A stretch of DNA of 64,000 nucleotides from assembly GCA_964415935.1 (NCBI GenBank), contig CAYQCH010000001.1, positions 1,144 to 65,143 on the forward strand, written 5' to 3'. Of the stretch, positions 1,706-7,944 are shown piece after piece (within the stretch, counting starts at the first letter, position 1; each line of letters starts with the position of its first letter). Source of the stretch: an uncultured Gammaproteobacteria bacterium. GTDB lineage: Bacteria > Patescibacteriota > Patescibacteriia > VMEV01 > CAYQCH01. The translations under genes and the position numbers were made by a program. The notes below the pieces were generated by a model that was not told where the DNA came from, did not search any database, and was given only the letters and a program-made list of their open reading frames with translations.

Positions 1706-2001
1706 ATGCTTCTTTTTCAGTGTTAGTGCTCCCAAACGGGAGGTAACAAAAAGCCAGAAATTTTTTACCGCATACAAAATCCGGCAAAAAATTTCCGACC
1801 TTTATCACGAAAGACATGAAAAAGGTAATGTGTTCAAATCAAAGGGATTATCTCCTCTTGCGCGTCATGAGCCAATCAAGGTTTTCGTCCCGCTAAGCGG
1901 AAAGATCTTTCTTGAGTGTCGCGAGCCGCACATTTCCACAGTTCTGCGTGGAACTGAGCGTCAAATATCTTCGGCGCTCAGCCTCACGCAGGAGTGAGGG
2001 G
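1706..2001 (-). promoter_or_regulatory. Unusually long (296 nt) hairpin-rich spacer between rpsJ and rplC; candidate terminator/attenuator plus internal promoter or ribosomal-protein leader
   Basis: Several GC stems follow the rpsJ stop on the transcribed strand (cctcac/gtgagg, ctgagcg/cgctcag, ttccac/gtggaa, ccgc-tta-gcgg). These genes are normally adjacent. Confidence 0.3.
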
Positions 2002-2391: not shown

Positions 2392-3579
2392 TTACTTGAT
2401 AATCTTGGTAATAACACCGGCGCCTACCGTGCGACCGCCTTCGCGGATGGCAAAACGCTGTTGTTCTTCCATGGCAACCGGGACAATCAACTTGACCGTC
2501 ATCTTGGCCGTATCGCCAGGCATAACCATTTCCGCGCCGGACAAGGTAACCTCGCCAGTCACATCAGTTGTACGCATGTAAAACTGGGGTTTGTATCCGG
2601 TAAAAAACGGCTTATGACGACCGCCTTCTTCCTTGGTCAAAGAGTAGACTTCCGCTTCAAACTCAGTATGAGGAGTAACGGAACCCGGCTTGGCCAAAAC
2701 CTGACCGCGCTCAACGTCTTCCTTCTTCAAACCGCGGAGCAACAAACCGGCATTGTCACCAGCCTGACCGCGATCCAACTGTTTGTTGAACATTTCAATA
2801 CCCGTGACAACAGTCTTGGATGTGTCGCGAATACCGACAATTTCTACTTCGTCGTTCAGGTTAACAACACCGCGTTCAATACGACCGGTCACCACAGTGC
2901 CACGTCCTTCAATGCTGAAGACGTCTTCAACGGCCATCAGGAACGGCTTTTCAACGTCGCGCACAGGGGTTGGGATGAAGCTGTCGACAGCCTCAAGCAA
3001 GTCAATAATGCACTTGGCATCATCGCCACCAGGGTTGTTGAGGGCATTCAACGCAGACCCGCGGACAACCGGAGTTTCAGCTCCCGGGTAGCCGTGCTTC
3101 TTGAGCAATTCGCGGACTTCTTCTTCAACGAGGTCAACGTATTCCTTATCTTCCACAGCATCAACCTTGTTCAAAAACACAACAATGGAAGGGACGCCGA
3201 CCTGCTTGGCCAACAAAACGTGCTCGCTGGTCTGAGGCATGACGCCGTCAACAGCGGAGACCACAAGGATGGCGCCATCCATCTGCGCAGCACCTGTAAT
3301 CATGTTTTTCACGTAGTCGGCGTGGCCCGGACAATCGACGTGCGCGTAATGGCGGTTAGGAGAAGAGTATTCTACGTGCGCGGTGGCAATCGTAACGGTC
3401 TTGCTCGCATCACGTTCAATACCGCCCTTGGCGATATCCTTATAGTCTTTCTTCTTACCCAAACCACGAGCTTCCGCAACAGCGGTCAACGCGGCGGTCA
3501 ATGTGGTCTTGCCGTGGTCAACGTGGCCAATAGTACCTACGTTAACGTGTGGCTTGGAGCGGTCAAACATTTCGGCCAT
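2392..3579 (-). CDS. tuf: Elongation factor Tu
   Basis: 395-aa ORF with [17 protein letters not shown] and NKVD GTPase motifs; follows fusA. Confidence 0.97.
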
Positions 3580-3629
3580 ACGAAGTTCTTAATGATGTAA
3601 ATCCGCGTTGCGGATGTTATTGCAGTAAG

Positions 3630-3660
3630 GAAAAACCCCAATACGGGGTTTTGTGATAAA
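3630..3660 (-). terminator. Rho-independent terminator-like hairpin (bidirectional) ending the rpsL-rpsG-fusA-small-ORF transcript upstream of tuf
   Basis: Sequence aaaaaccccaatacggggttttgtg: GC stem cccc/gggg flanked by an A-run and a T-run. Confidence 0.45.
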
Positions 3661-3783
3661 CCGTAATTCCTCTAAAAGTTGCCTAAATTATAACAGAGAA
3701 TTGAAAAATTGCAACTGGTGTCAACTCCCTGATTTTTCTAAAGAACAAACAGACAATCTTTTGGCCAACATTAGCAAAAATTT

Positions 3784-4080
3784 TTATTTCTGTCCATCCA
3801 GCGACTCGTCTCCGGATTCTTCATAAGCCAGCGGCTCAAACTCGTAGTTGTCCGCAAGCATTGACGACTCAGCGGCGCCGCCGACCGTTTGTTGAACAGG
3901 ATCGGCATTTGGACGCGGACGCGACACGAGGGTGTCGTTGTCCCGCTGGGGGGAGATGGCCTGCTCGTATTCTTTAATCGGCAAAATGACAAACGGCTCT
4001 TCCCCACCCTCCGGCAAAACGATCAGGCGATCGCCGGTGCGACTGGCAAGTTTGAGCAGTTGAGAGAGCCGTTTGTCCAT
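3784..4080 (-). CDS. Small acidic-tailed hypothetical protein (98 aa); N-terminal region resembles the Phd/YefM antitoxin-type fold
   Basis: ORF begins 8 nt after the fusA stop and is followed by a terminator. N-terminus LSQLLKLASRTGDRLIVLPEGGEEPFVILPIKEYEQA matches the Phd/YefM pattern (L..x..G..v.I.r.G.p.aVl...eYE). C-terminus is acidic (EFEPLAYEESGDESLDGQK). No toxin partner is seen. Confidence 0.4.
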   Translation of the reverse strand: MDKRLSQLLKLASRTGDRLIVLPEGGEEPFVILPIKEYEQAISPQRDNDTLVSRPRPNADPVQQTVGGAAESSMLADNYEFEPLAYEESGDESLDGQK

Positions 4081-4088
4081 ATGCGTGA

Positions 4089-6197
4089 TTACTTGGTTCC
4101 GGTTCCGGCGCGTTCGGCTTTCACCTTTTCCGCAACGTTGGCAGGTACTTCAGCATAATGGCTGAACTCCATGCTGGAGCTGGCGCGGCCCTGGCTCATG
4201 GAGCGCAATTCCGTCACATACCCGAACATCTCTGAAAGCGGAACGATGCCGCGGACAACCTTTGCCGTGCCGCGCTCCGTCATTTCATTGACCTGGCCGC
4301 GTCGCGCGTTCAAATCACCGATGACGTCACCCATGAAATCCTCAGGCGTGGTAATTTCCAGCTTCATCATCGGTTCGAGCAGGACGATTTTCGCTTTCTT
4401 TGCCGCCTCCTGGAAGGCCATGGAACCTGCCATCTTAAAGGCGACTTCCGAGGAGTCGACATCGTGGAAGGAGCCGTCGTACACCGTTACGTCGACATTG
4501 ACCACCGGATACCCGGCCAAAATGCCGCGGGACATGGCTTCTTCAACGCCCTTTTCAATAGGCTTGATGAATTCGCGGGGAATGACGCCGCCCTTAACTT
4601 CATCATGGAATTCAAATTCCTTGCCTTCAGCATGCGGCTTGACTCGCAACCAGCAATGACCGTATTGGCCGCGGCCACCGGACTGCTTGATGTACTTGCC
4701 TTCCGCTTCGGCTTCGCCCGTGATGGTTTCACGGTAAGCGACCTGGGGCTTACCGACATTTGCTTCGACTTTGAATTCGCGTTTCATGCGGTCGACCATG
4801 ATCTCCAGGTGCAATTCACCCATACCGGCAATGATTGTCTGGCCTGTTTCTTCATCCGTGCTGACGCTGAATGTCGGATCTTCTTCAGCCAGTTTACGCA
4901 AAGCAACACCAAGCTTTTCTTGATCAGCCTTGGACTTCGGTTCAATGGCCAGGCTGATAACCGGTTTGGCGAAGCTGATCTTTTCCAACAAAATCGGATG
5001 GTCAGGATCACAAAGAGTCTGTCCGGTGATCGTGTCTTTCAAACCGACAATGGCTCCGATATTGCCAGCGGTAATCTCCTCAACCTCTTCACGATGGTTG
5101 GCATGCAGCTGCACCAGGCGGCTGATGCGTTCTTTCTGACCGGTATTGGTGTTGTAGATGTACGTACCAGCCTTCATGACTCCGGAATAGACGCGCACAA
5201 AACACAACTTTCCGACAAACGGATCCGTGGCAATCTTAAACGCCAGGGCGGTCAAAGGTTCGGAGTCTTTCGCTTCGCGGGTAATCTTCACGGATTCGTC
5301 GGCAGGATCTGATCCTGTGACTGCCGGGATGTCCAACGGTGACGGCAAGTAGTCTGTAACAGCATCGAGCAACCGTTGCACGCCTTTGTTCTTCAAGGCA
5401 GATCCGCAAAGAATGGGGTAAAAATGCAGGCCGACGACTCCCTTGCGGATGGCGGCTTTTAATTCATCAACACTGATGTCTTTGCCCTCGAAATACTTGT
5501 TCATCAAAGCTTCATCATTCTCGGCGGCGGCCTCAATCAGCTGCTGGCGGTACTTCTTTGCCTCGTCCACCATCTCGGCCGGCACATCGGTTACTTGGAT
5601 GTCTGTACCCATTTCATTGGTGTAAATATATGCGTTCATCTGCACCAAATCGATGATGCCCTTGAAGTTATCTTCCGAGCCAATTGGCAGCTGGATGGGA
5701 AAAGCATTCTTGCCCAAACGTTCGTGAATGGACTTCACATCAGCGTAAAAATCCGCGCCCGTGCGATCAAGCTTGTTGATGAAACACAAGCGAGGAACCT
5801 GGTATTTGTCCGCCTGGCGCCAGACGGTTTCAGACTGCGGCTCCACGCCCGCAACACCGTCAAACACGACAACACCGCCGTCCAGCACGCGCAGGGAGCG
5901 CTCTACTTCAACGGTAAAGTCGACGTGACCGGGAGTGTCAATGAGGTTAATCTGATGCTTGGCGTTGTTCTGCGTGTTCGTCCAGAAACAGGTGGTGGCG
6001 GCGGCGGTAATGGTGATGCCACGTTCGCGCTCCTGTTCCATCCAGTCCATGGTAGCTTCGCCTTCATGAACTTCACCAATCTTATAATTCTTTCCCGTGT
6101 AATAGAGAATGCGTTCGCTGGTCGTGGTTTTGCCGGCATCAATGTGGGCAATGATACCGATGTTCCGGACCATGTTAAGCGGGGTTCGTTCGGCCAT
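4089..6197 (-). CDS. fusA: Elongation factor G
   Basis: 702-aa ORF; [10 protein letters not shown] and DTPGHVDF GTPase motifs and full EF-G domain order. Confidence 0.97.
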
Positions 6198-7196: not shown

Positions 7197-7293
7197 CCCG
7201 GGTACACGCAGCCACGCGTGATGTCCCTGGCGAAAAAGCCGTTTTCAGTTATGGCTAAACCCTACCAAGAATGGCTTGGGGCGTCAAGAGAAA

Positions 7294-7944
7294 TCAAAAG
7301 AGAGACACCAGAGCAATCACCGTCCACTCTAACCCCGAGAGCACGGTTCTGAACAAACCGCCAAAAAAGGACACGGGTGAAGAAGCGTCCAATAAAACAG
7401 CTAATAACAGCAAAAAGGGACCATAGTTGGCCAGCCAGTTTTTTACATGGTCAAAACGGTCAGGCAAGACAGCATCGAGAACCTTCGAGCCGTCTAAGGG
7501 ATGGATCGGCAATAAATTGAAAACAAGTAATGCCACGTTAAATTGCGCCAGAAATAGCAGGAAAACATACAACAGCGAGTTGGAAGGCATCCCCCTGCCG
7601 ACCAGGATGGCTAGCGCTAAAATAGCAATAAAGGCGAGGATAAGATTGGAAATAGGTCCGGCCAAGCCGATCCAGGCGGCGCCCCACTTAGGGTTTTTGA
7701 GGTAGCGGTCATCAAACGGCACGGGGCGCCCAAAGCCAAATCCTGCGGTAATCAGCAACAAAAAACCGATGGGGTGCATATGAACAAGCGGATTGAGTGT
7801 CAGGCGCCCCAAAGACTTCGGCGTGGGATCTCCCAACCGGTCGGCCACATAAGCATGAGCGAATTCGTGAACCGTAAATGCAATCACCAAAGATAAAAAA
7901 ACCGGTATAAGCAATGCGGGCTGGGAAAGGAGTGATAGGATCAT
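7294..7944 (-). CDS. Site-2 protease family (peptidase M50) integral-membrane zinc metalloprotease
   Basis: HEFAH zinc motif and NLLPIHPLDGSKV (the LDG motif of S2P/M50) with multiple TM helices. Likely start is Met17 (MILSLLSQ). Extended -10 TGCTATACT lies about 40 nt upstream. Confidence 0.75.
   Translation of the reverse strand: MILSLLSQPALLIPVFLSLVIAFTVHEFAHAYVADRLGDPTPKSLGRLTLNPLVHMHPIGFLLLITAGFGFGRPVPFDDRYLKNPKWGAAWIGLAGPISNLILAFIAILALAILVGRGMPSNSLLYVFLLFLAQFNVALLVFNLLPIHPLDGSKVLDAVLPDRFDHVKNWLANYGPFLLLLAVLLDASSPVSFFGGLFRTVLSGLEWTVIALVSLF

Follow-up and report, generated by a model that had tools for sequence, protein, structure and literature searches.

A small protein encoded upstream of tuf in Patescibacteria combines a Phd/YefM-related N-terminal domain with a conserved C-terminal motif

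Antitoxins of the Phd/YefM family (PF02604) consist of a small N-terminal dimer domain and a disordered C-terminal part with a partner-binding element, and their genes immediately precede the one in the toxin position. In Staphylococcus aureus YefM, DNA is recognised by N5, Y6, S7, R10, Q11, K14 and T32, and the dimer is held together by beta3-beta3' pairing and hydrophobic packing of helix residues (PMC7544224). Phd and YefM have disordered C-terminal tails, which fold onto Doc and YoeB (PMC7544224). Here we describe a relative of these proteins in a different genomic setting. The stretch analysed, hereafter the window, comprises 64,000 nt of contig CAYQCH010000001.1 (assembly GCA_964415935.1) and encodes, between fusA (EF-G) and tuf (EF-Tu), a small protein of 98 amino acids for which we use the working name X. 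The best explanation of the observations below is that X descends from a Phd/YefM-type antitoxin and is no longer part of a toxin-antitoxin pair. It was probably recruited from such a system into the translation machinery.

The coding sequence of X occupies positions 3784-4080 of the window on the minus strand, from an ATG start to a TAA stop; its parts, both flanking genes and the signals between X and tuf are on the same strand. Residues 1-43 (positions 3952-4080), which include TGDRLIVLPEGGEEPFVILPIKEYEQAIS, are predicted to form a truncated Phd/YefM-like alpha-beta-beta-alpha unit. A preliminary description of this DNA had seen a Phd/YefM-like pattern in the first 45 residues, and this resemblance withstood closer analysis. 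PF02604 matched X with E=4.7e-4 and 20.3 bits, below the gathering cut-off of 29.8 bits, with profile positions 11-50 covering X residues 3-43; TIGR01552 gave 11.7 bits against a cut-off of 20.8. The PF02604 profile was matched at E<=0.01 by 31 of 42 family members, the best at 1.9e-7. Alignment of the family N-domain with verified YefM/Phd sequences using hhalign paired X residues 7-43 with YefM residues 15-50 at 83% probability, and the 11 best Foldseek matches in the PDB were all YefM or related antitoxin chains, with non-significant E-values. PF02604 and TIGR01552 were the only models matched by the family in Pfam and NCBIfam scans, and a profile search of PDB sequences returned nothing significant. 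AlphaFold2 predicted a helix at residues 3-15, strands at 19-21 and 30-32 and a second helix at 35-42, with a predicted local distance difference test score (pLDDT) of about 85-92 for the domain (about 85 with 6 sequences, about 90 with 121). Judged from these profile and structure comparisons, the core of the N-domain is homologous to Phd/YefM at the family level.

The helix-beta2-beta3-helix core of the N-domain is shared with Escherichia coli YefM (2A6Q), S. aureus YefM (6L8E) and P1 Phd (3HRY), and X has retained the beta2-beta3 core of the YefM fold together with the hydrophobic positions of its helices. In contrast, the equivalent of YefM residues 1-14, with beta1 and N5, Y6, S7, R10, Q11 and K14, is absent or unaligned in X, where just six residues precede the aligned part, and these are unconserved across the family. 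X is thus a truncated homologue without the known DNA-reading head, which makes the proposal of an antitoxin-fold regulator, in the DNA-binding sense, doubtful. The retained core makes it plausible that X dimerises. No alignment extended past YefM residue 50, and X accordingly has no likeness to the toxin-binding segment of YefM/Phd. Of the properties of working type II antitoxins, X has the domain homology alone; an adjoining toxin gene, the DNA-binding head, the toxin-binding tail and a mobile distribution were not found.

The rest of the protein consists of three parts. Residues 44-74 (positions 3859-3951) are a poorly conserved, predicted disordered linker whose length varies greatly across the family. 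They are followed by a C-terminal motif, LADNYEFEPL in the window's clade (residues 75-84, positions 3829-3858), and by an acidic extension found in this clade only (residues 85-98, positions 3787-3828). AlphaFold2 assigned pLDDT values below 50 to residues 48-69, with a moderate rise to about 71 across residues 81-90. Residues 44-98 contain 12 D/E against 4 K/R, so that the acidic and disordered character previously ascribed to the C-terminal half is upheld; the motif itself had been overlooked. In the alignment of close homologues, the invariant blocks MDKRLSxLxKLxxxTGDRL.V.PE...EPF...P...YE and LADNYEFEP are separated by a variable stretch, and L75-P83 are invariant in all 6 sequences.

The same two conserved ends recur in the wider family. 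The consensus of the N-domain, from 96 unique complete members, is xxLxRLLxLAK/RRTGDRLIVxDxxGxEPxVILPLxEYExL, and T15, G16, D17 and R18 of the TGDR turn, together with L19, are invariant in 42 diverse N-domains. The C-terminal motif has the general form aromatic-x-hydrophobic-E-P-hydrophobic (YEFEPL in the window) and was found as E-[ED]-x-[FQ]-Y-[LE]-E-[PE]-[VIL] in 95 of the 96 members, usually 1-4 residues from the C-terminus. Its subtypes are EEQFYLEP, with which the window motif aligns, EEDRQYLEE, DEPVFYEEPV and NYEFEP, the last in the window's clade, where 6-15 further residues follow. A free C-terminal carboxylate can therefore not be required. Total length ranges from 74 to 269 residues (median 156), and the median net charge is -16 for the tail and -2 for the N-domain. 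In many members outside the window's clade the N-domain is followed by a conserved helix, L[TS]EEELLxKINRDIAxW. Members of Falkowbacteria and Magasanikbacteria type (loci L054-L120) have this helix and also a conserved W-x-I-P segment about 20 residues ahead of the C-terminal motif. Neither element is present in the window's protein, which by this comparison is a minimal version of the family. Within the window, X alone ends in the motif.

X is a real gene. The 98-residue reading frame was said to start 8 nt past fusA, and the sequence bears this out: the fusA stop TAA (4089-4091) and the junction TCACGCAT occupy positions 4081-4091. The codon-usage score of X, 0.331 bits per codon, is typical of the window (mean of 31 long open reading frames, 0.336), and the remaining five frames over X score no higher than 0. 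Five homologues with 86-43% identity were found, and those with context occupy the identical slot in the order uppS-queA-M50 peptidase-rpsL-rpsG-fusA-X-tuf-rpsJ-rplC. Whole-gene pairwise ratios of nonsynonymous to synonymous substitution (dN/dS) are 0.25-0.45 for X and 0.03-0.05 for tuf, with the first 43 codons of X at about 0.05-0.1 in close pairs. Furthermore, the invariant TGDRLIV and EExFYLEP residues of the family, the C-terminal motif included, are encoded by freely varying synonymous codons, which shows that selection acts on the protein. Both checks proposed at the outset, codon usage and conservation in relatives, thus came out in favour of a gene.

The constant genomic partner of X is tuf, not fusA. 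Our set of 122 loci comprises 26 from GTDB genomes and 80 from metagenomes, with exact protein look-up supplying the others; linkage was counted with each unique protein taken once. For 95 members the downstream sequence extends to at least 600 nt. In 84 of these, tuf begins on the same strand no more than 500 nt away (median gap about 160 nt), and in another 6 at 700-1423 nt, which gives 90 within 1.5 kb; it was not seen downstream in the other 5. In the window itself, tuf (2392-3579) starts 204 nt past the X stop. The end of fusA, which in the window's clade is the upstream neighbour (4089-6197), lies within 300 nt of X in 38 of 74 informative members and farther off in 18; the remaining 18 have no fusA end within 2.5 kb. 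Genomes of Uhrbacteria type have 1-4 unrelated genes between fusA and X, and a Magasanikbacteria contig has an intact X-tuf-rpsJ order without fusA upstream, whereas a Falkowbacteria contig shows the full M50-rpsL-rpsG-fusA-X-tuf synteny of the window. The preliminary statement that no toxin gene adjoins X holds: its neighbours are fusA and tuf, and no toxin family was present among the called neighbours in the window and the annotated loci inspected. The gene thus lies, as in Phd/YefM systems, directly upstream of a gene in the toxin position, which here is tuf instead of a toxin.

One near-identical relative, L005, differs from the window at two places in this neighbourhood. Its fusA, tuf and rpsJ products are 100% identical to those of the window, and the dS of tuf is 0.015. 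Between L005 6095-6294 and window 3787-3986, the C-terminal two-thirds of X, the nucleotide difference is 14.5%, and the last 55 codons of X have a dS of 0.39 and a dN of 0.12. This sharp local divergence hot spot, to which the linker belongs, reflects either recombination or very fast evolution of the disordered tail. The second place lies between the M50 peptidase gene and rpsL, where about 850 nt of L005 (1939-2792) have been inserted into, or have replaced, the sequence at window positions ~7289-7359. This segment holds a 192-residue open reading frame without a Pfam match, and the 3' part of the M50 peptidase gene (window ~7327-7800) is just 66-85% identical between the two.

The family is specific to Patescibacteria. 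Searched against 1.84 billion proteins, a profile built from six sequences matched 370 representatives at E<=1e-3, and two wider profiles retrieved 314 and 670 clusters. The names given in the sources are Candidatus Uhrbacteria, Falkowbacteria (in NCBI taxonomy within the Parcubacteria group of Patescibacteria), Magasanikbacteria, Parcubacteria and 'Patescibacteria group'. Two very long proteins also scored highly in the representative search; P0010 (1681 residues) is a Thr/Pro-rich repeat surface protein and was discarded as a spurious match, and the other is P0008 (4318 residues). A scan of GTDB genomes with the close-homologue alignment A1 gave no confirmed relative, and a scan with alignment A4 reached the 'RTGDRLIVT' subfamily only. 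Members are almost always labelled 'hypothetical protein' and rarely, by automatic annotation, 'type II toxin-antitoxin system Phd/YefM family antitoxin'. Full-text literature searches turned up no description of the family, and no Pfam or NCBIfam model covers it beyond the sub-threshold Phd/YefM match.

X is vertically inherited and an old gene of a large clade of Patescibacteria. Identity between X N-domains follows identity between the EF-Tu sequences (Spearman 0.58, reached by 0 of 500 Mantel permutations), and no relatives were found in 2.9 million IMG/VR viral contigs or 72,556 PLSDB plasmids. The reading frame had been described as inserted between fusA and tuf, but it is no lineage-specific insertion. 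Several GTDB records that carry X-tuf loci are titled 'uncultured Gammaproteobacteria bacterium' (metagenome-assembled genomes designated MAG TPA_asm; L018, L021, L022, L026, L027, L031, L037 and L038). These loci share the type of the Uhrbacteria and Patescibacteria records, and their EF-Tu is about 70-75% identical to that of the window. The Gammaproteobacteria titles are probably wrong.

How X might act can be approached from its layout. We tentatively favour, at somewhat less than even confidence, the view of X as a bivalent tether that attaches by its C-terminal peptide to some component of the elongation cycle, EF-Tu being the most probable one. An X dimer would present two such peptides on flexible acidic arms, and their grip on the partner would resemble that of an antitoxin tail on its toxin. 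EF-Tu would be the most likely partner, its gene filling the downstream 'toxin slot' in nearly all members; another component of the EF-Tu/EF-G elongation cycle would be the alternative. By this binding, X would modulate the availability, activity or recruitment of the factor. A bolder version, which we regard as possible but not probable, makes X a dedicated EF-Tu partner: an antitoxin scaffold would have entered the core elongation cycle of a large clade of Patescibacteria by exaptation, and its bivalent acidic arms and C-terminal peptide would bind EF-Tu to recruit, buffer or sense it. X would then be a bacterial analogue of stalk-peptide/GTPase recognition or an EF-Tu-responsive feedback device.

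Several points speak against a tether of this kind. Adjacency within a ribosomal superoperon can reflect co-expression instead of physical interaction, and the dimer is deduced only from homology. EF-Tu is among the most abundant proteins of the cell and a stoichiometric binder would be costly, so that any effect of X would have to be regulatory or substoichiometric. Furthermore, in the spacers inspected a tuf promoter lies between X and tuf, and the two genes are thus not strictly one transcription unit.

This promoter bears on a different reading, in which X is a local transcription regulator of the tuf promoter or of its own, with the acidic tail as a sensor, possibly of EF-Tu, in a manner like conditional cooperativity. 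A promoter scan of the window found TTGCAA-16 nt-TGtTATAAT at 3687-3714 (minus strand). It is invariant in 5 relatives in which the flanking spacer has diverged, and an equivalent TTGnnn-N-TGnTAnnnT promoter with an extended -10 box is present in 40 of 84 unique X-tuf spacers. X ends close to it (its stop precedes the -35 box by a median of 30 nt and by as little as 9 nt), regulators are often encoded beside their targets, and in antitoxins the Phd/YefM N-domain is the DNA-binding dimer (PMC7544224). However, beta1 and the DNA-contacting N5, Y6, S7, R10, Q11 and K14 are lacking or unconserved in X, its N-domain is slightly negative and the whole protein strongly acidic. The anchored alignment of the 40 spacers showed no conserved element beyond the -35 and -10 boxes and the start region, and hence no conserved operator; no conserved palindrome appeared in the anchored promoter alignments. 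A 12-bp near-palindrome after the X stop, GCTAAT.ATTAGC, occurs in the window's clade and in L012 and was weighed as a possible operator. Whereas the L007 copy is perfect and those of L003 and L012 each have one mismatch, the window copy (3764-3775) is degenerate, and the sequence is not enriched there (3 matches against 1.5 expected); the idea was rejected as unsupported. We consider a regulator of this type unlikely.

An equally unlikely reading is that X is a lineage-specific ribosome-associated protein, whose N-domain docks on the ribosome and whose acidic arm and peptide recruit translational GTPases. Its functional counterparts would be the archaeal and eukaryotic P-stalk proteins (aP1, P1/P2), small proteins that dimerise through their N-terminal domain and carry, on a flexible acidic linker, a conserved hydrophobic C-terminal peptide for binding GTPases of EF1A/EF2 type. 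X shares this three-part layout: its N-domain is small, its linker acidic and flexible, and its hydrophobic motif at the C-terminal end conserved. Its gene lies in the str/S10 cluster between both elongation GTPase genes, and helix 1 of the N-domain has conserved basic positions (e.g. RLLRLARRTGDR). The likeness would be one of function only, as X has no sequence or fold relationship to the stalk proteins, a YefM-like N-domain and a different motif. The Pfam and NCBIfam scans found no homology to stalk families (P1/P2, bL12) and no similarity to any ribosomal protein family, PF02604 being the only relation. The range of lengths and the fast evolution of X are unusual for ribosomal proteins, and in some lineages X-tuf stands apart from fusA.

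X could also be an orphan antitoxin or decoy against a toxin encoded elsewhere or delivered from outside, such as an EF-Tu-targeting kinase of Doc/Fic type, and be kept beside tuf for joint expression. The homology of the N-domain and the automatic antitoxin labels of some members agree with this idea. Doc, which is neutralised by Phd, inactivates EF-Tu by phosphorylation. Against it, none of the inspected loci with called genes has an adjoining toxin, and the C-terminal region is unlike the toxin-binding parts of YefM/Phd, with a motif unrelated to the YoeB- and Doc-binding segments and a tail far more acidic and very variable in length. The family is moreover vertical in inheritance and fixed in synteny across a large clade, not patchy or mobile, and is absent from the viral and plasmid collections searched. 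We hold an orphan antitoxin to be improbable. Finally, that X is a functionless reading frame or a conserved spacer that merely looks coding, as its small size, half-disordered structure and lack of a curated family above threshold might suggest, is effectively refuted by dN/dS, codon usage like that of the window genes, synonymous variation at invariant residues and frame-specific constraint conserved over more than 100 loci.

The layout of X, a folded domain with a flexible tail, has further parallels, which we regard as analogies. SspB, with its ClpX-binding tail, and SSB, with its acidic C-terminal tip, each join an oligomeric domain to a short conserved docking peptide through a long flexible linker. 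The SSB tip, like the X motif, mixes acidic with aromatic or hydrophobic residues, whereas the folds and partners are unrelated and the motif of the window's clade is not terminal. The delta subunit of RNA polymerase (RpoE) in Firmicutes, part of the core gene-expression machinery, has a small folded N-domain and a long polyanionic disordered tail. In this it resembles X; its N-domain has a different fold, and delta has no conserved C-terminal motif and is unlinked to tuf.

The expression of X differs between lineages. In the window's clade X has no promoter and no Shine-Dalgarno sequence and starts 4-9 nt past fusA or overlaps it (TAATG in L003), and its translation is therefore probably coupled to that of fusA. 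Outside this clade X has a promoter of its own. Of 99 unique upstream regions, 31 contain a TTGnnn-17-TAAGAT promoter ending 8-9 nt ahead of the X ATG, where shuffling would yield about 1, and the position of this promoter implies a leaderless X mRNA in loci of Uhrbacteria type. The idea that X rides on the str transcript thus applies to the window's clade only; elsewhere X has its own promoter, in about a third of cases with the leaderless layout. Both X and tuf lack a Shine-Dalgarno sequence and start in a C(G/A)TATG context (window 3577-3585 and 4078-4088; loci L014-L039).

The tuf leader is about 105 nt long. RNA folding predicted two hairpins in it on the minus strand, AAAACCCC-GUAUU-GGGGUUUU followed by U (3632-3652) and AUCCGC-AAC-GCGGAU (3601-3615). 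Their stems are conserved and their loops vary among relatives, and hairpins are also present in the tuf leaders of other Patescibacteria lineages. The window's leader folds with a z-score of just -1.2. The preliminary description took the first hairpin for the terminator of the operon, but the conserved tuf promoter precedes it and places it within the tuf leader. This hairpin may still stop read-through from X.

A further leader-like region lies downstream. The rpsJ-rplC spacer (window ~1709-2001, minus strand) is about 290 nt long, which is unusual for an S10 operon, and contains conserved blocks and three predicted hairpins without an Rfam match. Compensatory changes were observed in 17 of 47 pairs across 7 loci, distant Patescibacteria included. 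On these grounds the spacer may be an undescribed ribosomal-protein leader upstream of rplC. ARAGORN found no tRNA gene in the whole 64-kb window, str and S10 clusters included, nor was any Rfam family detected at gathering threshold; the longer X-tuf spacers of other loci likewise contain no tRNA genes.

Functional leads are scarce for the lineage-specific genes of Patescibacteria, whose genomes are very small. The X family is conserved and strongly constrained, yet it is labelled 'hypothetical protein'; the automatic 'type II antitoxin' labels on some members are unsupported by context. It sits in the most conserved translation gene cluster and stays directly upstream of tuf even where the str operon is broken. 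In our judgement X derives from Phd/YefM and has been domesticated, with a tail motif and a fixed genomic role that are both new. If X does bind EF-Tu or the ribosome, the elongation machinery would have gained a lineage-specific component in it, and its history would clearly exemplify how a toxin-antitoxin part is domesticated for housekeeping. Should X prove to be a dedicated EF-Tu partner, it would be the first toxin-antitoxin component fixed and vertically inherited in the translation apparatus.

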